DNA of 64,000 bases from an uncultured Ignavibacteriales bacterium (GTDB taxonomy: Bacteria; Zixibacteria; MSB-5A5; GN15; JAAZOE01), in the NCBI GenBank assembly GCA_964526635.1, contig CAZGLR010000002.1, positions 3,912-67,911 of the forward strand, written 5' to 3'. The notes beneath the pieces were generated by a model. The model made no database searches and had not been told where the DNA came from. It saw only the letters and a list, made by a program, of their open reading frames with translations. The position numbers were made by a program, and so were the translations under genes. Positions 4,395-55,947 of this stretch are shown piece after piece. How positions within the stretch are numbered: position 1 is the stretch's first letter; every line of letters starts with the position of its first letter.

Positions 4395-4888
4395 CCGAAC
4401 AGATTGTGTTCTACCTGTTTGCATTTTTAATAATAGCCTCGGCGCTGGCGGTGGTGACCCTGCGGAATATCTTCCATTGCGCGCTCTTTTTGATTCTGGC
4501 TCTGTTTTCGGTGGCCGGGATATTTGTCCTGCTGCATGCCGAATTCCTGGCGGTGGTCCAGGTCCTGCTGTATGTCGGGGCGGTGGCGATACTCATGATT
4601 TTCGCTATCATGCTCACCTCGCAACTGGCCGGCAAACAGACAAATCTATCCAATGAGCAGACTTTCATCGGCGCCTTTATGACCATACTGCTGGTTTTCG
4701 GGCTGCTGTTTTCTCTCAGGGAAACGAATTTCTATATCAGCAGCAAAGCGGCGGTATCCGATCAGTCAACATTCGAGATCGGCAAGCTGCTGATGACCGA
4801 CTTTGTGCTGCCGTTTGAATTAGTATCGGTGCTGCTTTTGGCGGCGCTGATCGGGGCAATACTTCTGGCACGGCGGGAGGGTCATTAA
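4391..4888 (+). CDS. nuoJ: NADH-quinone oxidoreductase subunit J (NuoJ/ND6)
   Basis: 165-aa membrane ORF with about 5 TM helices. ATGA overlap with the nuoI stop. Positional and compositional match to NuoJ. Confidence 0.8.
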
Positions 4889-4890
4889 TC

Positions 4891-5196
4891 ATGCACCTGA
4901 TGCACTACCTGACACTGGCCGCAATTTTGTTTTCGATCGGCTTTTTCGGGGTCGTAACCCGGCGAAATGCGATCGCAATCCTGATGTCCCTGGAGTTGAT
5001 GTTCAACGCTGTCAATATCAACCTGGTCGCATTCAATTATTTTATTACCCCGGATAAATTCGTCGGGCAGATTTTTGCGATTTTTGTGATCGTGATCGCC
5101 GCTGCTGAAGCAACCGTCGGCCTGGCGATCGTCATTCTCATCTACCGGAACTGGCGGAGTATCGACGCCGACCGGGTCAACCTGTTGAAGTGGTGA
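4891..5196 (+). CDS. nuoK: NADH-quinone oxidoreductase subunit K (NuoK/ND4L)
   Basis: 101 aa, 3 TM helices, [17 protein letters not shown] core with the conserved membrane glutamates. Confidence 0.85.
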
Positions 5197-5197
5197 T

Positions 5198-7197: not shown

Positions 7198-8679
7198 ATG
7201 AGCTACTCATTCCCGATACTCTCGTACACGATTTTTGTCCCGCTGGCGGGAATGCTGGTGGTGATGGTTCTTGACCGCAAGAGCCATAACGCCATCCGAT
7301 GGGTGTCGACCATATTCGCTGCCATCGCATTCATCCTGACGTTGATAATCCTCAAGGATTTCAACTGGACAACCGCCCAGTTCCAGTTCATGGAAAAGCA
7401 CTCATGGATACCGGCGATCAATGCTGACTATCTGCTGGGTGTCGACGGCATCTCGGTGCCGATGCTGGTGTTGACGGGACTGCTGTCGCTGATTTCGATA
7501 GTCATCAGTTTCAACATTACCAAACGGGTTAAGGAGTATTTCGCGTTCTTCCTGCTGCTGGAATGCGGGATGCTGGGCGTTTTTGCCGCTCTTGACTTCT
7601 TCCTGTTCTACGTCTTCTGGGAAGTCATGCTGGTGCCGATGTACTTTTTGATTGGTATCTGGGGCGGCCCGCAACGCGAATACGCTGCAATCAAGTTCTT
7701 CCTCTATACGCTGTTCGGCTCGATCTTTATGCTGGTGGCGATCCTGGTGCTGTATTTCACCTCGCAGCCACATACGCTCAACATGATCGACATGATCCGC
7801 ATGGGGGCCGGCTTCGATCCGCGGATTCAAATATTCGCCTTCGCCTTCTTCTTCATTGCCTTTGCGATCAAAGTCCCGGTCTGGCCGTTCCATACCTGGT
7901 TACCTGACGCTCACGTACAGGCACCAACGGCGATTTCTGTCATCCTGGCAGGGGTTCTGCTGAAAATGGGTACCTATGGTATGCTGCGCATCTCGTGGCC
8001 GATGCTGCCGGAAGGCATCCGCTATTTCTCGCTGCCGATAGTTATTCTGGGGGTTATCGCGATTATCTATGGCGCGCTGGTTTCGATGGCCCAAAAAGAT
8101 CTGAAAAAACTGGTGGCATATTCATCGGTGTCCCATATGGGTTACTGTATGATGGCGCTGGGGGCCTATACCTCAGTGACCGCGCTGGCCGGTTGCATGT
8201 TCCAGATGGTGTCCCACGGTCTCATCACGGGTGCTCTCTTTGCTCTGGTCGGCGTGCTCTATGACCGGGCCCATACCCGTGAGATCGCCGCCTTTGGCGG
8301 TCTGGCCAACAAGATGCCGGTGTATACCGCCCTGATGACATTGTTTGCGATGGCCTCACTGGGTCTGCCCGGTATGTCCGGATTTATCTCCGAATTCATG
8401 ATTTTCATCGGCAGCTTCCCGTCGTATCCGGTTTATGTCGGTATCGCTGTTCTCGGTGTCGTGCTGACTGCGGCCTATATTCTCCGCATGGTGCAGAAGG
8501 TATTTCTGGGTGAATTCGATATTTCCCGCTGGGGGCATTTAACGGAAATCAATGCCCGGGAAATTATCTGTGTGGCCCCGCTGGCGGTGCTGACTATCTT
8601 CCTCGGTGTTTATCCCAAACCGCTGGCTGATATCATGCAGGCGACTTTGGAAAATCTTGTTATGCTGATGGCGCGGTGA
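7198..8679 (+). CDS. nuoM: NADH-quinone oxidoreductase subunit M (NuoM/ND4)
   Basis: 493-aa antiporter-like ORF (FWEVMLVPMYFLIGIWGG, HTWLPDAHVQAPTA). Confidence 0.9.
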   Translation: MSYSFPILSYTIFVPLAGMLVVMVLDRKSHNAIRWVSTIFAAIAFILTLIILKDFNWTTAQFQFMEKHSWIPAINADYLLGVDGISVPMLVLTGLLSLISIVISFNITKRVKEYFAFFLLLECGMLGVFAALDFFLFYVFWEVMLVPMYFLIGIWGGPQREYAAIKFFLYTLFGSIFMLVAILVLYFTSQPHTLNMIDMIRMGAGFDPRIQIFAFAFFFIAFAIKVPVWPFHTWLPDAHVQAPTAISVILAGVLLKMGTYGMLRISWPMLPEGIRYFSLPIVILGVIAIIYGALVSMAQKDLKKLVAYSSVSHMGYCMMALGAYTSVTALAGCMFQMVSHGLITGALFALVGVLYDRAHTREIAAFGGLANKMPVYTALMTLFAMASLGLPGMSGFISEFMIFIGSFPSYPVYVGIAVLGVVLTAAYILRMVQKVFLGEFDISRWGHLTEINAREIICVAPLAVLTIFLGVYPKPLADIMQATLENLVMLMAR

Positions 8680-44710: not shown

Positions 44711-44739
44711 TTGATTTTTAGCAAAAATTGACGATTAAT
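44711..44739 (+). promoter_or_regulatory. Weak candidate sigma-70 promoter (TTGATT-N17-ATTAAT) ahead of the NtrC-type gene
   Basis: Read directly from the sequence. A TGCAAA-aa-TTTGCA palindrome lies just upstream at 44668-44681. Confidence 0.25.
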
Positions 44740-44759
44740 TGACAAAAGAAGACGAGTTT

Positions 44760-46196
44760 ATGGCTAAAGACCGCACAAAAGTACTTGTTATCGACGATGA
44801 CCCCAAAGTCGGCTGGATCCTCAACGAGGGACTTGCCGCCAGCTTTGATTTCGTCACCGCCCGCAATGGCGCCGAGGGTTTGCAGATGGTTACCACCGAG
44901 CGCCCTGATCTGATTCTCCTCGATATTAAAATGCCCGAAATGTCAGGGCTCGAAGTGCTCAAACGGTTGAAAAAAATGGAGGGGCGACCGGAAGTCATCA
45001 TGCTTTCCGGCCATGAAGAAACCAGCTATGTTGTTGATTCTATTAAAAACGGCGCGGCTGAATTCATCAAGAAACCATTCGACGTAAAAGAAGTCGAAAT
45101 TCACATCAATAATATTCTCGAAAAGAACCGTCTTCGCCAGGAAGTCACCAATCTTAAGACCGAGCTGCGGGCCAAGGCTCAGTATGAATCATTTATTGGC
45201 GATTCCCCGAAAATTGTTCAGGTGAAAAACCTGATCGAACAGGTAGCTGATTCGGAACTGACGGTGTTGATTCGTGGTGAATCCGGAACCGGTAAGGAAA
45301 TTATTGCCCGCATGATCCATAACGTCTCCAGTCGCAGCGAAGAATCGTTCACCAAGGTCAACTGCGCCGCCATTCCTCGCGATTTGCTCGAAGCCGAGTT
45401 ATTCGGATACGAAAAGGGCGCCTTTACCGGTGCGCATAAAACCAAGCCGGGCCGCTTCGAGGTTGCCAATAAGGGCACGATGTTCCTCGATGAAATCGGC
45501 GATATGCCGCACGATCTGCAATCGAAACTCCTCCAGGTTTTGGAGCAGCAGGAATTCGTGCGCGTCGGTGGGATCAATACTATTCATGTCGATGTCAGAA
45601 TCATCTGCGCCACCAACCGTAATCTGGAAGAGGCCATAAAGGACAGCAGCTTCCGCGATGATCTCTTTTATCGCCTGAACGAAATTACGGTCTTCCTGCC
45701 TCCGCTGCGGGATCGCCGCGATGATATTCCGCTTTTGACTGATCATTTCGTTGACAAATACAGCAAATTGTATAAAAAAGAACCGATCGTTTTAAGCGGC
45801 GAGACTATGTTTATGCTTTCCAGTGCGCCATGGCCGGGCAATGTTCGCCAGTTGGAAAACCTGATGAAACAAGCGGTTGTGCGTGGCGATGAATCGATTT
45901 TGCCGGAATTGCTGACCGCCCAGACAGCGGTGACCGACAAAAACGGCACGCACTCGGCCTCAGCACCGTCCAGTTCACCTGTGATAGGCGCCCCCGAACC
46001 ATTTGAAAATGATGACGACTCCTTATCACTCAAAAAACGCGTGGCCACCGCAGTTGCCCGTGAGGAAAAACGGCTTATCTCAAGAGTCCTGACCAAAACC
46101 AACTGGAATCGCCGCAAGGCTGCCGAGATTCTCGAAATAAGCTATCGTTCGCTGCTTTACAAGATCAAAGAATACAGTCTGAATGAAATGAAGTGA
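44760..46196 (+). CDS. Sigma-54-dependent response regulator (NtrC family: REC plus AAA+ plus Fis-type HTH)
   Basis: REC domain (VLVIDDD...DLILLDIKMPEMSG), Walker A GESGTGKE, the sigma-54 contact loop GAFTGA, Walker B MFLDEIGDM and a C-terminal HTH (RRKAAEILEISYRSLLYKIKEY). ATG 44760 is preferred over TTG 44739. Confidence 0.9.
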   Translation: MAKDRTKVLVIDDDPKVGWILNEGLAASFDFVTARNGAEGLQMVTTERPDLILLDIKMPEMSGLEVLKRLKKMEGRPEVIMLSGHEETSYVVDSIKNGAAEFIKKPFDVKEVEIHINNILEKNRLRQEVTNLKTELRAKAQYESFIGDSPKIVQVKNLIEQVADSELTVLIRGESGTGKEIIARMIHNVSSRSEESFTKVNCAAIPRDLLEAELFGYEKGAFTGAHKTKPGRFEVANKGTMFLDEIGDMPHDLQSKLLQVLEQQEFVRVGGINTIHVDVRIICATNRNLEEAIKDSSFRDDLFYRLNEITVFLPPLRDRRDDIPLLTDHFVDKYSKLYKKEPIVLSGETMFMLSSAPWPGNVRQLENLMKQAVVRGDESILPELLTAQTAVTDKNGTHSASAPSSSPVIGAPEPFENDDDSLSLKKRVATAVAREEKRLISRVLTKTNWNRRKAAEILEISYRSLLYKIKEYSLNEMK

Positions 46197-46502: not shown

Positions 46503-46979
46503 ATGTTGACCAACAGCTTCAAGAGGAAAGAGGGTATGGACGCCAACACGATTAAGTCGTTTCGAGATATTGCCCTGCTTGAGCTCAAACGAGCTGAACG
46601 ATATCGCAATTTTCTTTCGATCTTGATCCTGAATTTTTCGGAATTTCTCGCAACAGCCGGCAGGCGGCGGATTTCATCGCCGGAAGATGCCGAACAATTT
46701 ATCGCCGAGGTCAGGGAACGGGTTCGGCGGGCCGCGCGGGAAACCGATATGGTCGGTGTTGTTAATGATTCACGATTGGTAATGCTCTTGCCGGAAACCG
46801 ATCGCGACAACGCCCAGACTGCGGGTGAACGGTTTCAGGATTTGATCAGCGAATTTTTGGGTGAATATCTGCAATCGGAATTTGATTTTGAAGTGCCGGT
46901 CGAGGTGGTATCATTTCCTGATACCACGGGGGATGTGACGCTGAAATCCCGCGTCAACAGCCTGTTTACCGAAAATTGA
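46503..46979 (+). CDS. Stand-alone degenerate GGDEF-like domain protein
   Basis: The sequence aligns by eye to the diguanylate-cyclase fold: LELKRAERYRNFLSILILNF (in place of DxD-FK), RETDMVGVVNDSRLVMLLPETDRDNAQTAGERF (VNDSRL in place of GGDEF). The start is either ATG 46503 or ATG 46536, the latter preceded by aggaaagaggg. Confidence 0.55.
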   Translation: MLTNSFKRKEGMDANTIKSFRDIALLELKRAERYRNFLSILILNFSEFLATAGRRRISSPEDAEQFIAEVRERVRRAARETDMVGVVNDSRLVMLLPETDRDNAQTAGERFQDLISEFLGEYLQSEFDFEVPVEVVSFPDTTGDVTLKSRVNSLFTEN

Positions 46980-47086
46980 TCGTATAAAGCGCTCTGGGAT
47001 TCAATCCGGTCAGGGTGGTTTCGGCCGATGCGTTTTGCACTGGCGCTTACTTATATTTTATCTATATTTATGCCACGGTAAAAAAT

Positions 47087-47713
47087 ATGAATCATTCTGA
47101 CAAAAACGATATCCAAATATCTGAAAAGGAACTGGTGCAGAAAGCCCAGGCCGGCGATTTCACGGCGTTCAATCAATTGATTGAACAGTATCGCCAGAAG
47201 ATTTATCGGCTGGCGCTGAAGATGGCCAAAAACGAACAGGACGCCGAAGATATTTTTCAGGATACGTTTCTCAAAGCAATCGACAAAATCGGCCAATTCC
47301 GCGCCGAATCATCTTTTGGAACCTGGCTCTATGCCATCGCCGTCAACGTCGCCCGGGCCCGCTACGGCCGGTCATTTGAAAAGGACCTGCTGCCGCTGGA
47401 AGAGTATTTGCCGGTCAAACCGGGCGAATCCGAGGCCCGGCCGGGGACTTTGTATGACTGGGATGATCCGCTGTCGAAGATGACCGCCGGCGAAGTCCAG
47501 CAGAAGTTATCGAAGGCGATTACCGAACTGCCTTTGAAATACCGGGTGGCGTTTTTGCTCCGGTATATCGAGGAGATGTCGGTGCAGGAAGTGGCGCAGG
47601 CGATGAACCTCACTGTCGCCGCCGCCAAATCACGGATCCTGCGAGCCCGCCTGGCCCTGCGCCAGAGTCTGAATGATTACTTTACCGGGGAGGCCAAGCA
47701 TGTCGGATTGTAA
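47087..47713 (+). CDS. ECF-type RNA polymerase sigma factor (sigma-70 regions 2 and 4)
   Basis: From ATG 47087. Region 2 (AEDIFQDTFLKA...FGTWLYAIAVN) and region 4 (LPLKYRVAFLLRYIEEMSVQEVAQAMNLTVAAAKSRILRAR). Confidence 0.85.
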   Translation: MNHSDKNDIQISEKELVQKAQAGDFTAFNQLIEQYRQKIYRLALKMAKNEQDAEDIFQDTFLKAIDKIGQFRAESSFGTWLYAIAVNVARARYGRSFEKDLLPLEEYLPVKPGESEARPGTLYDWDDPLSKMTAGEVQQKLSKAITELPLKYRVAFLLRYIEEMSVQEVAQAMNLTVAAAKSRILRARLALRQSLNDYFTGEAKHVGL

Positions 47714-47954
47714 TGAAATTATAAAATACTTATCGGACTATATCGATGGCACCCTTGATCCGGAATTGTGCCGTGAACTCGAAGAACAGCTCGGCGGGTG
47801 CGATAATTGCCGCCTGATGGTCGATCATCTGGAAAAGACAGTAAAAATTTGCCGCGATGGTGTCTGCGCCGAACTGCCTCAGGATCTGCAGAAAAAACTC
47901 AATTCCAAACTTGAAGCAAAATGGAAAGAAAAGTTCGGCGCCGGATCCTCCTGA
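47700..47954 (+). CDS. Small soluble Cys-rich anti-sigma factor (zf-HC2/ZAS-like)
   Basis: 84 aa, overlapping the sigma gene by 14 nt. The N-terminal CNEIIKYLSDYIDGTL...LGGCDNC pattern resembles anti-sigma zinc fingers. Six Cys and no TM helix. Confidence 0.6.
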   Translation: MSDCNEIIKYLSDYIDGTLDPELCRELEEQLGGCDNCRLMVDHLEKTVKICRDGVCAELPQDLQKKLNSKLEAKWKEKFGAGSS

Positions 47955-48324
47955 TAAGCCAATATTCTCTATTTGTCGGTGCTTTGAACAAAGTACGGTT
48001 ATCTAAAATGTTTAACGATAATTGATTACGCGATATGGTCGATTGTCCTTCCAAACCTGTCCATCTATTGGACACTTTGGGATGATTCCATTTTTTAATC
48101 TTCGTGGTCGCGATTGCCCTTCTGTTCCCCATAAAACTACAGCGATTTGTGTTAATTACTTGACTGACAATATGTTAACTACGCCTGTTCGGTTTTTGGC
48201 GCAGCCCCGGAGTATTTTTTTCGGCCGGAAAAGTTGTCGGCGACTCGTACAGTGGGGCGACCCCACATGACAACATATTTTTTAAGTCGTTGTCAATCAA
48301 TCGCTAAATAAATAATTTCGGTTT

Positions 48325-48340
48325 TGGAATGACCTTTGCT
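48325..48340 (+). promoter_or_regulatory. Near-consensus sigma-54 (-24/-12) promoter TGGAAT-GACCT-TTGCT
   Basis: GG at 48326-27 and GC at 48338-39 have the canonical spacing. Lies about 45 nt upstream of the AGGAG-preceded ATG 48386 of the PEP-CTERM gene. Confidence 0.6.
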
Positions 48341-48385
48341 GTTAGATAAGCCAGAGAAATGAAAACACTAAAAGGAGTTACGATA

Positions 48386-49048
48386 ATGCGTAAGAATCTA
48401 CTTATCACTCTGCTTGCACTGGTCTTCTGCGGATCAGTCTTTGCCGTCCCGACTCTTTATGTCGATGGCGACGCTCAGACTGATATTCGCGATGGTGCCG
48501 GAAATGTAGCGCTTTCGTTTGCCGGTCCGACCCAGACCTGGACGCTGCTGGCCGAATTTGCCGGTTGGGCGGCCGATAACAATTTCGGTTACTATACCGA
48601 TTTTGCTGATCCGGCTGGCGAACCGCCGACCATCATCTTCCCCGGCTCCGACAGCCCGGTCATCAACAAGACGACCACCATCGCTGCCGGTACCGATATT
48701 GGTCTGTACATGAAGTCAGAGGCTATTTCGCCGAATCCGACCCTGTACTCCCATTTCGCGTTCAACGAGAATACACCCGACGATACTTATCAGTATTTTT
48801 ATGTGTATGACGTCAGCATGTATCGCGGTATGGGCAAAACCTATTTCTTCGATACTGAAAACGAAGATTACTCCACGACCCAGGATTTCGACTATCTGAT
48901 TTATATCGACGATAGTGGTGCCGCTCTTCCTGAATTCGATCACAACGATATGATTATCGGCGTGACCGCTGTTCCGGAACCGACCACGATGCTCCTGTTC
49001 GGTCTGGGTATGCTGGGCGTTGGCGTGAGCCGTCGCCTCCGCAAGTAA
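48386..49048 (+). CDS. PEP-CTERM sorting-domain protein (DUF4114-like mature region)
   Basis: Signal peptide MRKNLLITLLALVFCGSVFA. The C-terminal VPEPTTMLLFGLGMLGVGVSRRLRK is the PEP motif plus a TM helix plus a basic tail. AGGAG lies 8 nt before ATG 48386; the ORF-track start is 48359. Confidence 0.85.
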   Translation: MRKNLLITLLALVFCGSVFAVPTLYVDGDAQTDIRDGAGNVALSFAGPTQTWTLLAEFAGWAADNNFGYYTDFADPAGEPPTIIFPGSDSPVINKTTTIAAGTDIGLYMKSEAISPNPTLYSHFAFNENTPDDTYQYFYVYDVSMYRGMGKTYFFDTENEDYSTTQDFDYLIYIDDSGAALPEFDHNDMIIGVTAVPEPTTMLLFGLGMLGVGVSRRLRK

Positions 49049-49076
49049 CACCGGTTCAATCAGACGTATCGATTTG

Positions 49077-49108
49077 AAACGCCACCTTCTACAGGTGGCG
49101 TTTTTTTT
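49077..49108 (+). terminator. Rho-independent terminator
   Basis: aaacgccacc / ttctaca / ggtggcgttt followed by T8, about 30 nt after the PEP-CTERM stop. Confidence 0.85.
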
Positions 49109-49145
49109 GTCATAACCTGTTTTTACCCATCCATTTTACGGAATT

Positions 49146-51599
49146 ATGCATAAACCCCAAATCCCCATCTTCGATTTTTTTGAATCGTTTTCGCGACCGG
49201 GCCATCTAAAAGGACAATTGCAGGAATTGATCAAAACCGAAAGGATGGGTGTCGTGAAAGAAGGAATAACAAATTTTTCGATAAAGCACCCCTTTATCGT
49301 CATCTCAATTGTGGTGGTCCTGACCGCCTTTTTCGGCTATCAGTTGACCAATATTACAATTGATACCGACCCGGAAAACATGTTGCCGGAAGATGAACCG
49401 GTGCGCGTTTTCAATGATGAAGTCAAAGAGATGTTCGGCATCGACGACTTCATTGCAGTCGGGGTGGTCGATCAACAGGGTGCCTTTACGGCCGAGCAGT
49501 TGCGCCGTATTTATGCCATTACCGAAGAAATCAAGAAAATCGATGGCGTCATCGTGGATGACATCATGGCGCCTTCGACCGTTGATGATATCCGCCAGGG
49601 CGGTGGCAATTCCATTGTTGTTGAAACCCTGATGGAGGATGCTCCGGATTCCGATTCCGGCGCCCAGTATATCCTGGGCCGGATCAAGGATAATCCGATC
49701 CTGAGGGGTAAATTGGCTTCCGATGACGGCAAGGCGCTGGCCCTTTTTATTCCGATAGAGGCCAAAGACCATTCGCACCGTATCGCCGGTGAAATTACCG
49801 CCATCACTGATCGGCTGGGTGGCGATGAGGATTATTACATTGCGGGCCTGCCGGTTGCCGAAGACAGCTTCGGTGTCATGATGTTTGGTCAGATGATCTA
49901 CTCGGCGCCGTTGGCCGGACTCATCATCTTTATCCTCATGTTCATCTTCTTCCGGAACATCAGGATAATCATCCCGCCTATGATCGTCGCCGTGACCGCC
50001 ATTATATGGACTATGGGCGCGCTGGTGATGACGGGGCATACGGTCCATATTATGAGCTCGATGATCCCTATCTTTTTGTTTCCGATCGCGGTGCTGAACT
50101 CGATTCATATCCTCAGCGAGTTTCATGATCGTTATGGCAAATACAAGCATAAAGAGCCGACTATTCGCCATACTATAAATGAGCTGTTTATGCCGATGTT
50201 GTTTACTTCGGCGACGACCGTGGTCGGCTTCCTGTCGCTGCTGTCCAACAATATTCCGCCGGTGCAGGTTTTCGGTATCTTCGTCGCCTTTGGCGTCGGC
50301 GTGTCCTGGCTGCTTTCGATAACGCTCAACCCGGCGTTTGCCATGCTGCTGCCGGACAAGACCCTGAGGAATTTTGGCAAATCGAGCGATGAAGAAGATA
50401 AGTCACCTCTTTCAGCGGTAAACCATTTCCTCCGCGATTTCGCCGCCAAATACAGTAAGTCCATCCTTTTTGGCGCGACTGCTGTCGTTATCGTCTCGGC
50501 CGTCGGTCTTTCGATGATCACGGTCAACGACAATCCGGTCAAATGGTTCAAACCCTCTGATCCGCTTCGCCAGGCTGATCAGGCGCTCAACGCTCACCTC
50601 GCTGGAACCTATATGAATTATCTGGTCTTCGAGGGTGACGATGAAGGTGCCCTGAAAAATCCCGAACTGCTGCGCTATATCGAGGGTCTCCAACAACACC
50701 TTGAAAAAATTGATATAGTCGGTTCCACTACCGGTATCACCGATGTTATCAAGAAGATCCGCTATGAACTGCTGGGTGCCAATGACATGGCGACTTACGC
50801 CATTCCCGATGATGAAGCCGCGGTAGGCCAATTCCTGTTTCTCTATGAAATGACCGGCGGTGATCCGGATGATCTTTTCAAGCTGATCACCTCGGATTAT
50901 TCCAAGGCCAATGTCTGGGTTCAGATGACTGGTGGTGATAATCAGGCGGTTGCCGGTGTGGTTCACGCCGCTGAACAGTATCTGGTTGACAATCCGCCGC
51001 CCGCCGAAGTCGATGTCCACTGGGCCGGTCTGCCGTATGTCAATGTCGTCTGGCAGGATAAAATGGTTTCCGGAATGCGCATCTCGCTGCTGTCCTCATT
51101 TGGCATCGTGTTTATCATGATGAGCTTCCTGTTCCGTTCGCTCATCTGGGGCGTGGTCTCCATGTTGCCGTTGTCGATCACCATTATGGCGATCTATGGC
51201 GCAGTGGGGTACATCGGAAAGCCCTATGATATGCCGATTGCGGTGCTGTCATCATTGACACTGGGGTTATCGGTGGACTTCGCGATCCATTTCATACAAA
51301 GATCACGGATGATCCACAAAAGAACCGGTAATTACAAGGAAACTTACCGTCTGATTTTCGAAGGCCCCGGCCGCGCAATCAGCCGCAATGTGCTGGTGAT
51401 TGCCATCGGTTTTGTCCCGATGTTCTTCTCGAACCTGGTGCCGTATATCACGGTCGGGACGTTCTTCTTCGCGATCATGACCGTTTCCGGGGCCGTTACT
51501 CTGCTCTTGCTGCCGGCCATAACGCAAGTGTTCCATAAGAAGCTTTTTCCGGAACATGAAAACAAGAAATCAAATGATAGAATAACCGTAGGAGGTTGA
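49146..51599 (+). CDS. MMPL/RND-superfamily exporter (12-TM, two large periplasmic loops)
   Basis: 817 aa with two 6-TM bundles separated by soluble loops of about 200 aa, giving internal duplication typical of the MMPL/HpnN-like RND family. ATG 49245 is an alternative start. Confidence 0.75.
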   Translation: MHKPQIPIFDFFESFSRPGHLKGQLQELIKTERMGVVKEGITNFSIKHPFIVISIVVVLTAFFGYQLTNITIDTDPENMLPEDEPVRVFNDEVKEMFGIDDFIAVGVVDQQGAFTAEQLRRIYAITEEIKKIDGVIVDDIMAPSTVDDIRQGGGNSIVVETLMEDAPDSDSGAQYILGRIKDNPILRGKLASDDGKALALFIPIEAKDHSHRIAGEITAITDRLGGDEDYYIAGLPVAEDSFGVMMFGQMIYSAPLAGLIIFILMFIFFRNIRIIIPPMIVAVTAIIWTMGALVMTGHTVHIMSSMIPIFLFPIAVLNSIHILSEFHDRYGKYKHKEPTIRHTINELFMPMLFTSATTVVGFLSLLSNNIPPVQVFGIFVAFGVGVSWLLSITLNPAFAMLLPDKTLRNFGKSSDEEDKSPLSAVNHFLRDFAAKYSKSILFGATAVVIVSAVGLSMITVNDNPVKWFKPSDPLRQADQALNAHLAGTYMNYLVFEGDDEGALKNPELLRYIEGLQQHLEKIDIVGSTTGITDVIKKIRYELLGANDMATYAIPDDEAAVGQFLFLYEMTGGDPDDLFKLITSDYSKANVWVQMTGGDNQAVAGVVHAAEQYLVDNPPPAEVDVHWAGLPYVNVVWQDKMVSGMRISLLSSFGIVFIMMSFLFRSLIWGVVSMLPLSITIMAIYGAVGYIGKPYDMPIAVLSSLTLGLSVDFAIHFIQRSRMIHKRTGNYKETYRLIFEGPGRAISRNVLVIAIGFVPMFFSNLVPYITVGTFFFAIMTVSGAVTLLLLPAITQVFHKKLFPEHENKKSNDRITVGG

Positions 51600-51601
51600 A
51601 A

Positions 51602-52408
51602 ATGAAGACTACGTTCCTTTACTCGTTACTGCTTGTCGCCACCCTGATGTTTGTGGGCGGTGTGGCGGTCGCTGAAGACGCCGCCGAGATTATGAAGAAA
51701 TCACACATGGCGTACTATTACGCCGGTGATGACGGTGTTGCCGATGTCACGATGGATATCGTAAAAAGCAACGGCAAAACACGTACCCGCGAGTTCACCA
51801 TGCTGCGCCTCGACCTGGTCGAGGGCGGCGAACAAAAGTACTACACATACTTTCGGAAACCGTCGGATGTCTCGCGCATGACCTTCATGGTCTGGAAAAA
51901 CCCCAACAGCAGCGATGACCGCTGGCTGTATATTCCGGCGGTTGATCTGGTCAAACGGATTTCGGCCGATGACAAGAACTCGTCCTTTGTCGGGTCAAAC
52001 TTCTCCTATGAAGATGTCTCGGGTCGTCATTGGACCGAGGATACGCATACGCTCGTCTCGGCCGATGAAACTCTCGATAGCCGCCCGGTGTATCTGATAA
52101 GCTCCAAGCCAAATGATCCCGGATACAAGGCCTTTGCCGAAAAGAAAACCTGGGTGGATAAAGAGAATTACCTGCCGCTCAAGGAAGAATACTACAACGA
52201 CAAAGGTGAATTGATCCGCGTCTTTGCCGCCGATCAGGTGGAAGAGATTGATGGTATCCTGACGGTTGTCACGCGGACGATGAAAGACATCAAGGGTGAG
52301 CAGCATACGACCATCACCTTCAATAACATCGACTACAATACAGGTGTCGGCGATGATATTTTCACTGAGCGCTACCTCAAGGCTCCGCCGCGCCAGTACA
52401 TCAAGTAA
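51602..52408 (+). CDS. Outer-membrane lipoprotein-sorting (LolA-like) periplasmic protein
   Basis: Signal peptide, then AAEIMKKSH...DDRWLYIPAVDLVKRISADDKNSSFVGSNFSYEDV...KKTWVDKENYLPLKEEYYNDKGELIRV...FTERYLK, which matches the LolA_like family pattern. ggagg RBS; overlaps the MMPL gene end. Confidence 0.8.
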   Translation: MKTTFLYSLLLVATLMFVGGVAVAEDAAEIMKKSHMAYYYAGDDGVADVTMDIVKSNGKTRTREFTMLRLDLVEGGEQKYYTYFRKPSDVSRMTFMVWKNPNSSDDRWLYIPAVDLVKRISADDKNSSFVGSNFSYEDVSGRHWTEDTHTLVSADETLDSRPVYLISSKPNDPGYKAFAEKKTWVDKENYLPLKEEYYNDKGELIRVFAADQVEEIDGILTVVTRTMKDIKGEQHTTITFNNIDYNTGVGDDIFTERYLKAPPRQYIK

Positions 52409-52432
52409 CTAAAAACCGGGAGGGAATTGACT

Positions 52433-53737
52433 ATGGAAACCGAATATACATCACGACGGCCCCTCCTGATGGCCCTGCTGGCGATGCTGATTATGGTATC
52501 GCCGGCAGCTATGGCCCAGGATTTGTACTGGGGCGGATTTGTTGAAGGACTCTGGACCGGCGGCTTAAACGACAACAATCCCACCGGCCGCGATTATCCG
52601 GCCTCCGAAGTCAGGCTGCAGCTTCGGGCGGAATCTTATTCGAGCGTCGCGGAAGCATTCTCCAAAATCGATTTTGTGCAGGATGGCTTCGACTCGACCA
52701 CGTATGAAATCGAGCTGCGCGAAGCCTACATCCGCTTCCGCATTCCGATCGGACTCGATTTCAAAGTCGGTCGCCAGATTCTCACCTGGGGAACCGGTGA
52801 TTTGATCTTCATCAATGACGTCTTCGCCAAGGACTACCAGTCGTTTTTTATCGGGCGGCAGGATCAGTACCTGAAAGCCCCCCAGACCGGCATCCGCAGC
52901 GAACTTTACACTGGAATCGGGGCATTCAGCTTCGTATTTATTCCTGATTTTGAGCCGAATATACTGCCGACCGGGAATCGTTTGTCCTTTTATGATCCAA
53001 TGGAAATGACCATCGTCGGACAGGCGACCCCGGGCTATATCTATATGACACCGGTCGAACCGGGCAACAGCTTCGACAATGCCGAGCTGGCCGTTCGCTA
53101 CAAGAACCGCATTGGCGGCTTCGAACTGGCCGGCTATGCCTATCGCGGGTTTTATAAAGACCCCCGGGGCTTCGATCAGTCGATCGGCGCCTATTATCCG
53201 CGCTTGAATGTCTATGGCGCCTCGCTGCGGGGGCAGATTATCGGGGGCATCCTCTGGATCGAGGGCGGCTATTATGACTCCCGCGAGGATACCGATGGTG
53301 ACAACTATTTCATTGAAAATTCATCACTGAAGGGCCTGATCGGATTCGAACGCCAGGTGGCGACTGACTTTACCGGCAATATCCAGTTCCAAATCGAACA
53401 GATGCAGAGCTATGATGACTACGCCGCCGCCCGCTCAGCCCTGATCGATGCTGCCATGCTTCCGCCCACTGCCCCCAAGGCCGAAGAAATCCGGACACTT
53501 CTGACCTCGCGCTGGACCAAGCAGTTGATGATGCAGACTATGACGATATCGGCTTTTGGTTTTTACTCACCCTCGGATCAGGACGCCTATGTCCGTTTCT
53601 CGATTGAGTATAAATACTCCGATGAATTGTCGTTGATGGCCGGCGGAAATATCTTCGATGGCGAAGATATTCACACCCAGTTCGGCCAGTTTGATCTCAA
53701 CGATAACCTCTACGTGAAAATTAACTATGGCTTTTAG
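52433..53737 (+). CDS. Outer-membrane beta-barrel protein of unknown family
   Basis: Signal peptide ending AMAQ, amphipathic beta-strand periodicity and a C-terminal YVKINYGF (terminal Phe). gggaggg RBS. Confidence 0.6.
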   Translation: METEYTSRRPLLMALLAMLIMVSPAAMAQDLYWGGFVEGLWTGGLNDNNPTGRDYPASEVRLQLRAESYSSVAEAFSKIDFVQDGFDSTTYEIELREAYIRFRIPIGLDFKVGRQILTWGTGDLIFINDVFAKDYQSFFIGRQDQYLKAPQTGIRSELYTGIGAFSFVFIPDFEPNILPTGNRLSFYDPMEMTIVGQATPGYIYMTPVEPGNSFDNAELAVRYKNRIGGFELAGYAYRGFYKDPRGFDQSIGAYYPRLNVYGASLRGQIIGGILWIEGGYYDSREDTDGDNYFIENSSLKGLIGFERQVATDFTGNIQFQIEQMQSYDDYAAARSALIDAAMLPPTAPKAEEIRTLLTSRWTKQLMMQTMTISAFGFYSPSDQDAYVRFSIEYKYSDELSLMAGGNIFDGEDIHTQFGQFDLNDNLYVKINYGF

Positions 53738-53749
53738 GAGATACAGGCT

Positions 53750-53947
53750 ATGTCAATCGAAAACATGATTCGCGTGCTGGCCGGAACACTGGTTCTTGTC
53801 TCGCTGGTACTCGGATTGACGGTGTCCCAATACTGGTTCATCCTGACCGGTTTTGTCGGTGTCAATCTGGTGCAGTCGGCCTTTACCGGGTTTTGCCCGG
53901 CCGAAATGATCCTCAGAAAAATAACCGGCGCTAAATCCGCCGGTTAA
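53750..53947 (+). CDS. DUF2892 (YgaP C-terminal-like) small membrane protein
   Basis: 65 aa, 2 TM helices, and the VGVNLVQSAFTGFCPAEMILRKI motif characteristic of DUF2892. aggag RBS. Confidence 0.75.
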   Translation: MSIENMIRVLAGTLVLVSLVLGLTVSQYWFILTGFVGVNLVQSAFTGFCPAEMILRKITGAKSAG

Positions 53948-53981
53948 CTGTGCAACACGTTTTTCACCCTCCTATCGGTTG

Positions 53982-54007
53982 AACCCGGCGGAGTAATCCG
54001 CCGGGTT
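53982..54007. terminator. Bidirectional hairpin between convergent genes
   Basis: aacccggcgg / agtaat / ccgccgggtt forms a perfect 10-bp stem. Confidence 0.55.
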
Positions 54008-54016
54008 CTTCATCTT

Positions 54017-55183
54017 CTACACCAGGTAACTCTTCAGAAACTGCGGGAAATACAACCACAGGGCCAGGAACGCCCCCAGGGCGATATAGACAAGCTTGAA
54101 CCATCGTGGCCGCGGTGAGGCGGCAATAATCATCGCGGCGGGCAGAATCAGCAAATAATGGCGCCAGACCGATGAAAACGATATTCCGGTGGCCGGGGAA
54201 AAGAGATACAATATCACGGCAAAAACAACCAATTCCACTTTGATTCGATATGGATAAAAAAGCAGAAAAATAAGGCCATACCATAAAAACACAAAATTCG
54301 AAAGATACTGCGTATGCTGAATATCCATGTAAAAATATGGGCTGCTGAACCTGAAATGCCTTAATGAATTCCAGATTGTCACCAACGGAAATTCCCAGCT
54401 GCGCTGGAAATTTTCCTGAAGCTTCAAAAACAGGAAAAAATCATCGAATTTGAAGTAGAAATACGATGATAAAATCAACGGCCCCAGCATCAGGGGCAAT
54501 GTATACAGGGCAAAAGAGGTAACCAGCCGCCCCACCGGATGCTGCCTGCGATTTGCCCAATACTCCCGCCATGATTTGATAAGGGGGACAACGGCCAGTA
54601 ACCACGCTGTCGGATAGCACAATGATATCCAAAGGCCCAGAAGCGGCAGCAGGATCATCGTCAGGCGTGTTTCCTGGCCGTACAACAGCCACAAATAAAT
54701 ACTCATCAAGGCCAGTAACAGGGCATAGGGAAAACCAAGCAGGAAATAAAAGGCTGTCGGGAATGCCGCCAGCGCGAGGGTTGCCAACCGTGGGGATACT
54801 TCCGGCGCCACTCGCTTGACCATTTTGAAGAAAAAGATGAACCCTATGATACTGAAAATGTATGGTAGAACCAGAATCCCGATTTGATTAAATCCCGGAG
54901 AAAAAGCCGTTACCGCCAGCGGCCATCCGGGAAACCACCCGACATTGCCGCAGATGTCGCCCATCGGGTAATCTTTGCCGGGAATGCACGGCCGAACATT
55001 GTAGCCATCCTCGGCAATCGAAAGATACAATTTGATGTCCCAGACCGGCTTGAACATCATGCTGTTGTGGTAAGAGAGGGCAAGTGAAATATAAACTCCG
55101 GCCAGTATGAGAAAAATAAGAAACGGCCAGAGAAGTGACCGTGGATTGGAAAACGATGATTCTGACATGGTCTTGTTCATCAT
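54017..55183 (-). CDS. PIG-V/Mannosyl_trans2-like GT-C polytopic glycosyltransferase
   Basis: Polytopic ORF with a first-loop motif VWDIKLYLSIAEDGY...GWFPGWPL, resembling the WD..Y..IAe.GY...FFPlyP signature of PIG-V-type mannosyltransferases. ATG 55183 forms an ATGA overlap with the upstream gene stop. Confidence 0.5.
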   Translation of the reverse strand: MMNKTMSESSFSNPRSLLWPFLIFLILAGVYISLALSYHNSMMFKPVWDIKLYLSIAEDGYNVRPCIPGKDYPMGDICGNVGWFPGWPLAVTAFSPGFNQIGILVLPYIFSIIGFIFFFKMVKRVAPEVSPRLATLALAAFPTAFYFLLGFPYALLLALMSIYLWLLYGQETRLTMILLPLLGLWISLCYPTAWLLAVVPLIKSWREYWANRRQHPVGRLVTSFALYTLPLMLGPLILSSYFYFKFDDFFLFLKLQENFQRSWEFPLVTIWNSLRHFRFSSPYFYMDIQHTQYLSNFVFLWYGLIFLLFYPYRIKVELVVFAVILYLFSPATGISFSSVWRHYLLILPAAMIIAASPRPRWFKLVYIALGAFLALWLYFPQFLKSYLV

Positions 55184-55818
55184 GTCATAAATATGACGCA
55201 ATACAGAAAAATCAGCAGATAAATCGTCGCGCCCAGCCCGCGGGTGAATCTGAAAATTGGTCGGTCATCAAAACGGGGCATTGGCTGACCGCGCATGACA
55301 TGAATTAAGCGATGCGTATAGACAGCCAGCGAGAGTGCAATAAAAATGCCGGCCACCGGCAGACTGATCATGATCGCACAGAGATTATCCAGCACATAGG
55401 CGACCAGAAGAAACGCGATGGATGCAAAGGCATACTTCCCGGTAAAATTCGATGATGGTATATCCTGAATCTTGCGATGAATCAGGAAGCTTCCCAGGAC
55501 AATCAGCAGATCCCGGCCGATTACAACCACAGCCAGCCAGAGGGGAAACGCCCGGTATACTATCAGCATGACTACCAGCACCAGGGCCAGAAATTTGTCC
55601 GACAGCGGATCGAGAATCAACCCCAGGCGTGTCTGCTGATTGAGCTTGCGGGCCAGGTATCCATCGAAGTAATCGGTCATCGTCGCTGCCGCCAGGCAAA
55701 GCAGGGTATAAATCCGGTATTCCGGCCCCGGGCGGGAAAGAAATATCGCAACGGGAATCAGCAATAATAACCGTCCCAGTGTCATCAGGTTGGGCAGCTT
55801 GACGATATCGGAAAGCAT
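55180..55818 (-). CDS. CDP-alcohol phosphatidyltransferase family protein
   Basis: Signature DYFDGYLARKLNQQTRLGLILDPLSDK, i.e. D-x2-DG-x2-AR-x8-G-x3-D-x3-D. About 6 TM helices. ATG 55818 (MLSDIVKLPNLMT) is preferred over 55869. Confidence 0.85.
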   Translation of the reverse strand: MLSDIVKLPNLMTLGRLLLLIPVAIFLSRPGPEYRIYTLLCLAAATMTDYFDGYLARKLNQQTRLGLILDPLSDKFLALVLVVMLIVYRAFPLWLAVVVIGRDLLIVLGSFLIHRKIQDIPSSNFTGKYAFASIAFLLVAYVLDNLCAIMISLPVAGIFIALSLAVYTHRLIHVMRGQPMPRFDDRPIFRFTRGLGATIYLLIFLYCVIFMT

Positions 55819-55947
55819 AGCCCAAGATAGCCCGGCCGAAATTGTTATGCAAGCGGAAGGATGATTCAATTACATAAAATAAATGAGGCGGGATTGTCTT
55901 ACATCCCGCCTCTGCCAACAACGATGAGGAGCGTGAAGGGGAGATCT

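Follow-up and report, generated by a model that had tools for sequence, protein, structure and literature searches.

A four-gene cassette encoding an inner-membrane RND transporter, a periplasmic LolA-like carrier, an outer-membrane beta-barrel, and a small DUF2892 membrane protein is best read as a previously undescribed version of the DUF1302/DUF1329/RND systems, which are themselves poorly understood. On balance, the cassette is likely to serve the proton-driven, stress-induced export of a hydrophobic or amphiphilic molecule across the envelope, and the proposal of an envelope-spanning exporter, made in a sequence-only reading of this DNA, was supported overall. Here, we further describe an ECF sigma factor and an RsrA-like anti-sigma factor encoded upstream, with one promoter motif preceding the sigma gene as well as the RND gene. 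The features of this region in the window (the whole 64-kb stretch of DNA that was analyzed) are as follows.

47088-47116, + strand: ECF-type promoter of the sigma gene, TGAATC-N18-TCCAA
47135-47713, + strand: ECF sigma factor, RpoE/SigW type; GTG at 47135 is the probable start (longest ORF from 47015)
47700-47954, + strand: small, soluble, RsrA-like zinc-finger (ZAS) anti-sigma factor, 84 aa; zf-HC2, 9.7e-12
48325-48340, + strand: sigma-54-type promoter of the PEP-CTERM gene, TGGAAT-N5-TTGCT
48359-49048, + strand: PEP-CTERM protein gene; PEP-CTERM, 3.1e-8
49076-49104, + strand: terminator hairpin of the PEP-CTERM gene, 5' of the cassette; -18.5 kcal/mol, z -6.2, followed by U8
49181-49209, + strand: ECF-type promoter of the cassette, TGAATC-N18-TCTAA
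49254-51599, + strand: inner-membrane RND transporter of the HAE3/MMPL type, about 781 aa; MMPL, TIGR00921 (ORF 49146-51599)
51602-52408, + strand: periplasmic LolA-like carrier (PF17131, TP_0789-like), 268 aa; PF17131, 9.3e-55; start ATG, RBS AGGAGG
52433-53737, + strand: predicted outer-membrane beta-barrel of about 18 strands, 434 aa, ending in ...NYGF; start ATG; short, divergent DUF1302 relative
53750-53947, + strand: YgaP-like (DUF2892) two-helix inner-membrane protein, 65 aa, with a GFCP motif; PF11127, 7.5e-14
53981-54008, + strand: terminator hairpin closing the operon, with a 12-bp stem including 9 G-C pairs; -26.9 kcal/mol, z -6.5

Organization of the operon

The four ORFs all lie on the + strand and are as tightly linked as originally described, with gaps of 2, 24, and 12 nt between the RND, LolA-like, barrel, and DUF2892 genes, in that order. 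For genes 2 to 4, the gene calls in a public protein collection use identical starts, including an exact call of the LolA-like gene. The strong terminators said to bracket the cassette are real. That the genes share one transcript, rather than being transcribed independently, is suggested by their close spacing, by the terminators, and by the presence of only one conserved promoter.

The upstream terminator belongs to the PEP-CTERM gene. Together with its own promoter, this gene forms a lineage-specific insertion (48325-49104) that is outside the system; no such insertion between the anti-sigma and RND genes was found in 47 relatives.

The RND transporter and its start

The assignment of the first gene to the MMPL/RND family was borne out. 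The protein matched Pfam MMPL (PF03176) at 9.7e-36 and 123.8 bits (cut-off, 20.5) in two stretches, one per protein half. Its best NCBIfam match was HAE3 (TIGR00921; 6.6e-63), at 212.9 bits against a curated cut-off of 351.9 bits; because the best match falls below the cut-off, the protein probably represents a divergent HAE3 subfamily. The nearest solved relatives were HpnN and MmpL proteins (E values of 1e-7 to 1e-6). Hydropathy analysis revealed twelve hydrophobic segments and two periplasmic loops of about 180 aa after TM1 and TM7, giving the predicted order TM1 (about 14-32), loop (33-214), TM2-6, TM7 (404-422), loop (423-603), and TM8-12. D675 in TM10 and N282/S283 in TM4 were invariant across 61 RND sequences and are candidate proton-relay positions.

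The gene had been taken to begin at 49146, which is over-extended. The N-termini of homologous RND proteins follow M-K-x-G-L-T-x-F-S-I-x-H-P, and this pattern fits the GTG at 49254 (MKEGITNFSIKHPF). Since the conserved promoter motif occupies 49181-49209, inside the supposed 5' end, the start should be near 49254 rather than at 49146, and the first 36 codons of the ORF are probably non-coding.

The LolA-like carrier and the outer-membrane barrel

The second gene was correctly recognized as LolA-like. Its product matched PF17131 at 185.6 bits (cut-off, 30), covering 183 of the 184 profile positions, and it carries a signal peptide without a lipobox cysteine. Residues 44-262 matched the solved open beta-barrel structures 3BK5 (3.2e-28), 9TP6 (1.5e-27), and 4Z48 (4.4e-27); 9TP6, one of these three closest solved relatives, is LolA3 of Porphyromonas gingivalis. 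A weak match to DUF1329 stayed below threshold (21.0 versus 23.1 bits).

The barrel ends in ...NYGF as described, with a length of 434 aa, and it is not the orphan without a nameable family that it was thought to be. It scored just under the gathering threshold of Pfam DUF1302 (PF06980; 21.0 versus 23.2 bits), over profile positions 135-317 of 541 only. DUF1302 was also matched by 20 of 26 members of the barrel family at E < 0.01 (best, 1.6e-6), and several members have precomputed PF06980 matches or the NCBI name "DUF1302 family protein." By these profile matches, the barrel is a distant, short, and divergent relative of DUF1302. The AlphaFold2 model contained about 18 long strands (pLDDT, 81; pTM, 0.75). 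Foldseek searches with the model returned only generic 16- to 18-strand barrels, AlgE among them (TM, 0.53), and none of the solved structures searched was specifically similar. The strand number and the weak AlgE-like similarity agree with published DUF1302 models. In the same published work, AlphaFold-Multimer predicted a complex of DUF1302 with DUF1329 at an ipTM of 0.84 (PMC13499233).

The DUF2892 protein

The 65-aa product of the fourth gene matched the YgaP-like transmembrane family PF11127 at 52.1 bits (cut-off, 25.3) and the YgaP transmembrane domain 2MPN at 2.8e-8; the rhodanese domain of the YgaP membrane sulfurtransferase was not found in it. The cysteine of its GFCP motif, Cys49, was kept in 99% of 76 sequences, in line with the conservation noted previously. 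Of 80 close loci, 75 carried the gene, against 28 of 80 distant ones, and its position varied. In one lineage a YgaP-like domain is joined to the RND C-terminus; such fusions were seen in locus L123 and in three independent protein clusters, P0389-P0391. Because of this variable position and fusion, the DUF2892 protein is probably a subunit of the RND pump, and this fourth member of the cassette, once wholly unexplained, is no longer so. About 70% of distant cassettes lack the gene, and the protein is therefore not essential to the core mechanism.

Conservation of the gene neighborhood

The order RND, LolA-like, and barrel gene is almost obligate across phyla. In practically all of 80 Zixibacteria-type genome loci, these three genes and the DUF2892 gene followed one another on one strand. 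The core triad was also kept in Desulfosarcina, SAR324, Hydrogenedentes, Acidobacteria, and Desulfuromonadaceae, at barrel identities of only 30 to 35%. Among 80 distant metagenome loci, the LolA-like gene lay upstream of the barrel gene in 59 of 60 cases, and both RND and LolA-like genes were present in 42 of the 43 loci with enough upstream DNA. Thus, the gene-neighborhood survey recommended with the first description found co-occurrence in close genomes, in at least five named lineages, and in metagenomes. The RND and LolA-like genes are even fused in locus L075, as also reported for TOL_3187 of Thalassolituus (PMC6304351).

The barrel family comprises 1,493 clusters at 50% identity. Whether it consists of generic porins found in unrelated contexts had been raised as an objection; in the surveyed loci, the family was not seen to be common outside the RND/LolA-like context. 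No other conserved neighbor was found around the barrel gene in 168 loci, and the module is therefore autonomous. Linked biosynthetic or catabolic genes that would hint at the cargo were likewise absent from this locus and from the 168 loci. That the genes are merely adjacent, with the barrel a general porin and the DUF2892 protein an unrelated small membrane protein, is barely credible: the Foldseek similarity is indeed only generic and porin-like, but the linkage is near-obligate in several phyla while the flanks change completely, natural gene fusions occur, and one conserved promoter precedes genes that are 2 to 24 nt apart.

Probable control by an ECF sigma factor

The sigma factor matched Sigma70_r2 (8.5e-17), Sigma70_r4_2 (4.8e-15), and, above its cut-off, TIGR02937; it contains regions 2 and 4 only, and its gene overlaps the anti-sigma gene by 14 nt. 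The anti-sigma factor has no transmembrane segment and showed a weak match to RsrA (TIGR03988; 1.4e-7, 31.5 bits against a 62.5-bit cut-off). In 51 orthologues, C4, C24, H30, C34, C37, and C51 were each kept in at least 96%; in the protein of the window, Q30 replaces the His zinc ligand of the C-x25-H-x3-C-x2-C motif.

The cassette promoter motif has no other exact match in the window, and with up to one mismatch only two sites were found, upstream of the sigma gene and of the RND gene. Among the 62 loci with enough upstream DNA, the motif preceded the RND gene exactly in 51 and with up to one mismatch in 59, at a fixed distance from the RND start. In 43 of 47 loci, a copy of the motif was also found directly before the sigma gene, implying that the sigma gene is autoregulated. 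The promoter resembles the RpoE type, GGAACTT-N16-TCTGA/TCAAA. From this motif pattern, a dedicated stress sigma factor appears to turn the cassette on.

Orthologues of the sigma and anti-sigma genes lay immediately upstream of the cassette in about 50 loci. The four genes first described are all present, but because this pair precedes them, the functional unit in relatives comprises six genes. The ECF pair and the motif were absent from distant loci; this mode of regulation is therefore lineage specific.

Proposed mechanism and alternatives

The export route would run as follows. The trigger would be cytoplasmic, with thiol-oxidative or electrophile stress the most plausible candidate; acting on the Cys-rich soluble anti-sigma factor, it would free the sigma factor, which would then transcribe its own operon and, from the motif at 49181-49209, the four-gene operon. 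The RND protein, with the DUF2892 protein probably bound as a small subunit, would use the proton gradient to lift the cargo from the inner membrane. The cargo would be passed to the soluble LolA-like protein, whose half-barrel may shield it in the periplasm. Finally, the carrier would dock on the 18-strand DUF1302-like barrel, and the cargo would be inserted into or released across the outer membrane. Candidates for the cargo are an endogenous lipid of the outer membrane and a toxic lipophile partitioned into the membrane. We infer this order of hand-off, together with the signal, the subunit role of DUF2892, and the kind of cargo; the outward direction is assumed from the precedent of other RND proteins.

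Import instead of export is unlikely. In this reading, hydrophobic nutrients (for example, alkanes, fatty esters, or compounds resembling sterols) would enter through the barrel, travel inward on the LolA-like protein, and be inserted into the inner membrane by the RND protein. In Pseudomonas putida, DUF1302/DUF1329 and RND/BNR genes are required for growth on fatty esters and Tween, and such fatty-ester phenotypes of relatives are equally compatible with uptake. In addition, the Thalassolituus MMPL-LolA fusion is upregulated 42-fold on C28 alkane (PMC6304351), and DUF1329 genes are located in aromatic-compound catabolic islands. However, the characterized bacterial RND pumps all transport outward, ECF/anti-sigma control is typical of stress responses and not of catabolism, and catabolic genes are not linked to the cassette in any locus surveyed. 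The related AmeABCD system confers monoterpene tolerance and Nile-red efflux, and its deletion reduces tolerance and efflux rather than uptake (PMC6394551).

A Lol-like alternative, in which lipoproteins would be sorted with the LolA-like protein as carrier and the barrel as receptor or insertase, is quite improbable. The LolA superfamily fold suggests it, as does the NCBI label of PF17131 proteins, "outer membrane lipoprotein-sorting protein." However, P. gingivalis LolA3, a close relative (about 1e-27), shows no binding to LolB, and neither the LolA nor the LolB signature, Arg-Pro or an exposed Leu, is found in it (PMC13103446); deletion of lolA3 in Flavobacterium johnsoniae left gliding and type IX secretion unaffected (PMC11885536). 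Moreover, Lol carriers are loaded by an ABC transporter and not by an RND pump, and the genomic partner of the LolA-like gene is an RND pump, not LolCDE.

Export by the cassette may also be placed in a broader and distinctly more tentative scheme. The triad of RND protein, PF17131 carrier, and short DUF1302 barrel might be a widespread, mechanistically distinct route for lipids or lipophiles across the Gram-negative envelope, from pump to soluble shuttle to barrel, with neither a TolC-like duct nor an ABC transporter; the DUF2892 hairpin, with its invariant membrane-interface cysteine, might be a true pump subunit; and in Zixibacteria the machine might serve solely as the output of an ECF switch that senses thiols in the cytoplasm. 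That all three hold together is possible but doubtful.

Significance

Apart from Lpt, Lol, Mla, and Tam/AsmA, the routes by which hydrophobic molecules traverse the periplasm are not settled. The module is compact, with three or four genes, autonomous, and present in many phyla, and its barrel family has about 1,500 clusters at 50% identity. For three "dark" families, PF17131, short DUF1302, and DUF2892, it provides a first foothold for functional work, and it is testable by virtue of the near-obligate triad linkage, the defined promoter and regulator pair, and the fusions that place DUF2892 on the pump. If DUF2892 is a pump subunit, this would be the first function for the DUF2892/YgaP-like domain family. 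If the ECF switch senses thiols, redox or electrophile stress would be tied to outer-membrane remodeling or detoxification. In Porphyromonas and Prevotella, which are oral pathogens, iron limitation strongly induces related MMPL/LolA-like operons.

Comparison with known systems

The parallel drawn earlier with DUF1302/DUF1329/RND clusters was correct, and it reflects homology rather than analogy, given the near-threshold DUF1302 match of the barrel and the weak DUF1329 match of the carrier. AmeABCD of Castellaniella defragrans and the DUF1302/DUF1329/BNR(COG4447)/HAE3-RND clusters of Pseudomonas, Shewanella, and Delftia share with the cassette an HAE3 RND protein, a periplasmic LolA-superfamily protein, and an 18-strand DUF1302-type barrel; their proposed role, export of lipophiles or envelope components, is also the one proposed here. 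However, the carrier here is a PF17131 protein of about 270 aa instead of a DUF1329 protein of about 450 aa, and the barrel is a sub-threshold DUF1302 protein of about 430 aa instead of 540 to 600 aa. The COG4447/BNR (Ycf48-like) beta-propeller is missing from the cassette and not conserved in the 168 loci, the genes run in the opposite order, starting with the RND gene, and a DUF2892 gene is added. Control is by an ECF sigma/anti-sigma pair, whereas LuxR-type regulators are found in those clusters.

The Porphyromonas and Prevotella (Bacteroidota) operons likewise contain MMPL and then PF17131 (LolA3, PGN0947, PDB 9TP6), followed by hypothetical genes. They differ in having TetR and two ABC ATPase genes and in being induced 13- to 136-fold by low iron, with no ECF pair and no DUF2892 gene reported. 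HpnN, for hopanoids, and mycobacterial MmpL3/4/5 also belong to the HAE3/MMPL-type RND proteins and carry lipids out of the inner membrane towards outer layers, but with low sequence similarity and no co-encoded LolA-like or barrel partner. MmpL4/5 need the small membrane partner MmpS, whose part parallels the one suggested here for DUF2892, although MmpS and DUF2892 are unrelated. In the aryl-polyene system ApeL/ApeM/ApeN, an RND pump and a LolA-like chaperone have been proposed to deliver lipid to the outer membrane, but the outer-membrane partner is a LolB-like lipoprotein (DUF3261) rather than a barrel, and the genes lie inside a biosynthetic gene cluster.

The regulatory part resembles SigR-RsrA and RpoE-type ECF regulons in its small soluble Cys/His zinc-binding anti-sigma factor, autoregulated sigma gene, and bipartite promoter. 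It differs in the weakness of the RsrA match, in the Gln at the His ligand position, and in having an envelope transporter as the sole target near the sigma gene.

Organization of the cassette

Four consecutive open reading frames were read on the + strand between 49.1 and 54.0 kb of the window, encoding an RND pump, a LolA-like protein, a barrel protein, and a DUF2892 protein.

Features of the cassette and its upstream region (window positions)
Ending at 47713, + strand: ECF sigma factor gene, orthologue of the sigma gene in the pair upstream of related cassettes
47700-47954, + strand: anti-sigma factor gene (zf-HC2)
48325-48340, + strand: sigma-54-type promoter of the PEP-CTERM gene, TGGAAT-N5-TTGCT, well spaced
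49076-49104, + strand: terminator hairpin of the PEP-CTERM gene, -18.5 kcal/mol, z -6.2, followed by U8
Corrected start GTG 49254, + strand: RND transporter gene; Pfam MMPL 9.7e-36; best NCBIfam model HAE3 TIGR00921, 6.6e-63, under the curated cut-off
Start ATG 51602, + strand: LolA_like/TP_0789-like gene; PF17131 9.3e-55
Start ATG 52433, + strand: barrel gene; 434-436 aa, C-terminus NYGF
Start ATG 53750, + strand: YgaP-like_TM/DUF2892 gene; 65 aa; Pfam 7.5e-14
53981-54008, + strand: terminator hairpin, -26.9 kcal/mol, z -6.5

Ribosome-binding sites accompanied the start codons at ATG 51602, ATG 52433, and ATG 53750, which leaves intergenic gaps of 2, 24, and 12 nt, and public gene calls gave identical starts for these three genes. 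The four linked genes between bracketing hairpins, as proposed by the sequence-only reading, are real. That reading had started the RND gene at ATG 49146, where a ribosome-binding site is absent. In homologous pumps the N-terminus is always M-K-x-G-L-T-x-F-S-I-x-H-P, a pattern that falls on GTG 49254 (MKEGITNFSIKHPF) in the window, preceded by AAAGGA; the start was therefore moved to this codon. The conserved promoter described below sits within 49146-49254. Neither a riboswitch nor a leader emerged from an Rfam scan covering 46900-54100, which gave no match at E<=1.

A minus-strand hairpin with a U-run was also seen at 53922-53946, within the 3'-terminal part of the DUF2892 gene (-15.7 kcal/mol, z -4.8). 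Together with the hairpin at 53981-54008, it suggests terminators in both directions for convergent operons. The genes facing the cassette are an overlapping pair, 54017-55201 (-) and 55180-55869 (-). The first encodes a 394-aa multi-pass membrane protein that matched nothing in Pfam or NCBIfam, and the second a PgsA-like CDP-alcohol phosphatidyltransferase. This pair may modify phospholipids or glycolipids. It also lies downstream of the cassette in the three nearest relatives (L001, L002, and L004) and nowhere else.

Conservation of the triad

Scanning a single genome for each GTDB species yielded 80 close loci, in which barrel identity is 44-68%. They come mostly from Zixibacteria; a few carry the labels Krumholzibacteria, Calditrichota, or Ignavibacteria. 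When the open reading frames of these loci were searched with the window proteins, the order and strand of the RND, LolA-like, barrel, and DUF2892 genes were kept in practically every sufficiently long locus. DUF2892 was present in 75 of the 80, and four of the five exceptions stop just past the barrel gene. No RND gene was found in L006, where a run of N at 7202-7301 makes an assembly gap the probable cause. In L075, the pump and the LolA-like domain form a single frame (2628-5867, +), a parallel to TOL_3187, an MMPL-LolA fusion described from Thalassolituus (PMC6304351).

The linkage extended well beyond this group. A search seeded with P0244, a barrel representative of 33% identity, led to seven distant contexts that were looked up, including Desulfosarcina, SAR324, Hydrogenedentes, Acidobacteria, and Desulfuromonadaceae, and all seven carried MMPL, PF17131, and barrel genes in that order. 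A metagenome scan with an alignment of the distant barrels added 80 further loci. The LolA-like gene lay upstream of 59 of the 60 barrels having >1 kb of upstream DNA, and both LolA-like and RND genes were present for 42 of the 43 having >3.7 kb. Clustering of flanking genes in the distant loci revealed no other conserved neighbor that could hint at a cargo. Since the triad of RND, LolA-like, and barrel genes is kept across loci while its flanks are not conserved, it is an autonomous module traveling between very different genomic contexts.

The window flanks contain housekeeping and signaling genes. In 27 Zixibacteria loci (within L006-L080, e.g., L035 9700-14600), a conserved same-strand block follows the cassette and encodes a putative lipoprotein, a MurQ/SIS-like protein, a small CxxCH-containing protein, and a 395-aa protein; an opposite-strand TPR protein gene comes after it. 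This block is not in the window.

The barrel as a divergent relative of DUF1302

The barrel had been considered an orphan matching no nameable family. Its homologues number >3600 in a 90% identity collection, mainly in Zixibacteria and other FCB-group bacteria, and some carry the name "DUF1302 family protein." In a 50% identity library, 1493 cluster representatives were found at E<=1e-3 and 308 at E<=1e-30. The sole Pfam signal of the window barrel is a sub-threshold match to DUF1302 (21.0 bits vs 23.2), and 20 of 26 aligned family members match this model, the best at 1.6e-6.

The protein has a cleavable signal peptide and an aromatic C-terminal residue. An AlphaFold2 model (pLDDT 81, pTM 0.75) has about 18 long strands, with a highly conserved helical insert after strand 5 (motif GRQILTWGTGDLIFINDVFAKDY...GRDDQYLKAPQ). 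Sequence and profile searches of the PDB gave no match, and Foldseek of the model against the PDB returned generic 16-18-strand barrels only (MOMP, OmpF-type porins, and AlgE; TM ~0.5), so that no specific structural relative emerges. DUF1302 has been described as an 18-strand barrel without a solved structure, AlgE-like at TM ~0.55, and its complex with DUF1329 was predicted by AlphaFold-Multimer at ipTM 0.84 (PMC13499233). The window barrel matches this picture, and because of this agreement we treat it as a short and divergent relative of DUF1302 that scores below the formal Pfam cut-off. The LolA-like protein also matches DUF1329, weakly and below the Pfam threshold. The parallel drawn earlier with DUF1302/DUF1329/RND clusters was thereby borne out, and the outcomes named as speaking against a cassette (unconserved linkage, a generic porin, and independent transcription) all failed to appear.

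Some barrel relatives (P0146, P0152, P0174, P0158, and others) carry N-terminal extensions of 100-350 residues. That these are fused LolA-like domains was rejected, as 10 such proteins gave no Pfam match.

Probable regulation by an ECF sigma factor

Neighbor clustering in the first 80 loci revealed two more same-strand genes directly upstream of the cassette, for an ECF sigma factor of ~200 aa and a soluble zf-HC2 anti-sigma factor of ~87 aa. The pair occurs in ~50 of the ~62 loci that reach far enough upstream. Alignment of the regions upstream of the RND genes identified the motif TGAATC-N18-TCTAA, exact in 51 of 62 loci and with <=1 mismatch in 59, at a fixed distance from the pump start. 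The motif resembles RpoE-type promoters. Across ~1 Mb of locus sequence, 64 exact matches were counted against ~0.5 expected by chance (our own estimate), all on the + strand and all before an RND gene or a sigma gene. With the -10 element relaxed to TCCAA or TCAAA, the motif was found upstream of 43 of 47 sigma genes. The 64-kb window holds only two matches with <=1 mismatch, at 49181-49209 before the pump gene and at 47088-47116 before the sigma gene. A bipartite motif common to an ECF sigma gene and its neighbor is classically the mark of autoregulation in an ECF regulon, which the sigma factor and the pump operon would form. The promoter is also kept in loci without a nearby sigma gene (e.g., L003, L005, L025, and L031), as expected if the sigma factor acts in trans.

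In the anti-sigma factor, C4, C24, H30-x3-C34-x2-C37, and C51 are kept in >=96% of orthologues (n=51). Its best NCBIfam match is RsrA, weakly, and it contains no membrane segment. Given these three features, the most plausible input signal would be a cytoplasmic thiol, redox, or electrophile cue. The window protein has Gln at residue 30, where 96% of the 51 orthologues have the His of the H-x3-C-x2-C zinc motif, with possible consequences for zinc binding or redox sensing in its lineage.

Both the ECF pair and the motif are absent from the distant loci L081-L088, and this regulation is therefore clade-specific. Other regulators adjoin distant cassettes, such as MarR and a sigma-54 activator in L081; ABC transporters adjoin the cassette in L083. 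In the literature, Bacteroidota MMPL/LolA-like operons are described as carrying TetR.

In the window only, a PEP-CTERM protein gene (48359-49048, +) is inserted between the anti-sigma gene and the cassette. A sigma-54 promoter was considered for the RND gene and rejected, as the sigma-54-type site belongs to the PEP-CTERM gene. An NtrC-type activator is encoded 2 kb upstream of that gene (44739-46196, +) and is similar to TIGR02915, the PEP-CTERM-box response regulator (3.3e-116, under the cut-off). Between the activator and ECF sigma genes, 46503-46979 (+) encodes a 158-aa protein whose GGDEF domain (7.6e-6) is degenerate and truncated.

The DUF2892 protein as a probable accessory of the pump

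The fourth gene with its conserved Cys had been noted as an unexplained member; the gene and the residue stand, and fusions now point to the pump. In alignment, the protein matches the E. coli YgaP transmembrane hairpin, whose structure is solved (2MPN, 2.8e-8), and it lacks a rhodanese domain. The motif QSxFTxFCPAE is conserved among the 76 copies linked to cassettes, with Cys49 in 99%; YgaP topology and the positive-inside rule would place Cys49 at the cytoplasmic end of helix 2.

A YgaP-like gene was found in 28 of 80 distant loci, or 11 of the 37 with full room. It mostly follows the barrel gene, as in the Desulfuromonadaceae locus L086, and otherwise lies between the RND and LolA-like genes (L155 and, weakly, L089-L091) or immediately before the RND gene (L097, L109, and L159). 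In the metagenome locus L123 (2-394, +), the hairpin is in frame with the RND C-terminus with no intervening stop. A search with this 130-aa fragment recovered three independent clusters of ENA and JGI proteins (P0389, P0390, and P0391) in which pump TM10-TM12 likewise run straight into the hairpin, so four metagenomic sequences of a single lineage, each assembled independently, show the fusion. Pfam PF11127 scored near or below threshold on the fusion proteins (24.8 and 17.2 bits vs a 25.3-bit cut-off), and the call rests on a cassette-specific HMM (50.8 bits) and the conserved motif QSxFTGFC. The fusion is topologically sound, because the RND C-terminus and the hairpin N-terminus are both cytoplasmic. 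By this Rosetta-stone evidence, DUF2892 probably works on the pump. Comparable small partners would be AcrZ with AcrB, YajC with SecDF, and MmpS with MmpL4/5. Since most distant cassettes lack it, DUF2892 is an accessory and not a core part.

Proposed function

In topology the pump is a canonical RND protein with 12 helices, two periplasmic loops of ~180 residues, and an invariant TM10 aspartate; its nearest solved relatives are the lipid movers MmpL4/5, HpnN, Dispatched, and MmpL3. The LolA-like protein is homologous to open hydrophobic half-barrels and has a signal peptide without a lipobox, which makes it soluble in the periplasm. In the best-supported model, based on these features, those of the barrel, and the RND-LolA-like and RND-DUF2892 fusions, the proton-driven pump would draw a hydrophobic or amphiphilic molecule out of the inner membrane and hand it to the soluble carrier, which would deliver it to the barrel. 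In related systems, deletion of AmeABCD reduces monoterpene tolerance and Nile-red efflux (PMC6394551), DUF1302, DUF1329, BNR, and RND genes are cofit, with export of an envelope component proposed, and the MMPL/LolA-like operons of P. gingivalis and Prevotella respond to low iron with 13- to 136-fold induction.

The same parts could possibly work in uptake, a reading that fits stress-type regulation and the RND precedent less well than export does. A role of the LolA-like protein in general lipoprotein sorting is argued against by P. gingivalis LolA3, which does not bind LolB (PMC13103446), and by F. johnsoniae, where lolA3 is not needed for gliding or type IX secretion (PMC11885536).

Comparison with known systems

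The finding is real, and its sequence-only interpretation was essentially right; added here were statistics showing near-obligate linkage, a family for the barrel, a corrected start for the RND gene, the promoter and its sigma/anti-sigma pair, and the fusions that bear on the fourth gene. The literature already notes related clusters, but the widespread PF17131-based triad, now directly testable, has no characterized member. The cassette would work like the AmeABCD or DUF1302/DUF1329/RND systems, with which it shares homology in two of its three core parts, but it falls outside that four-component family. The carriers belong to different Pfam families, the COG4447 propeller of the AmeABCD type is absent, the barrel is a shorter, sub-threshold relative of DUF1302, and a putative DUF2892 subunit and ECF control are added.
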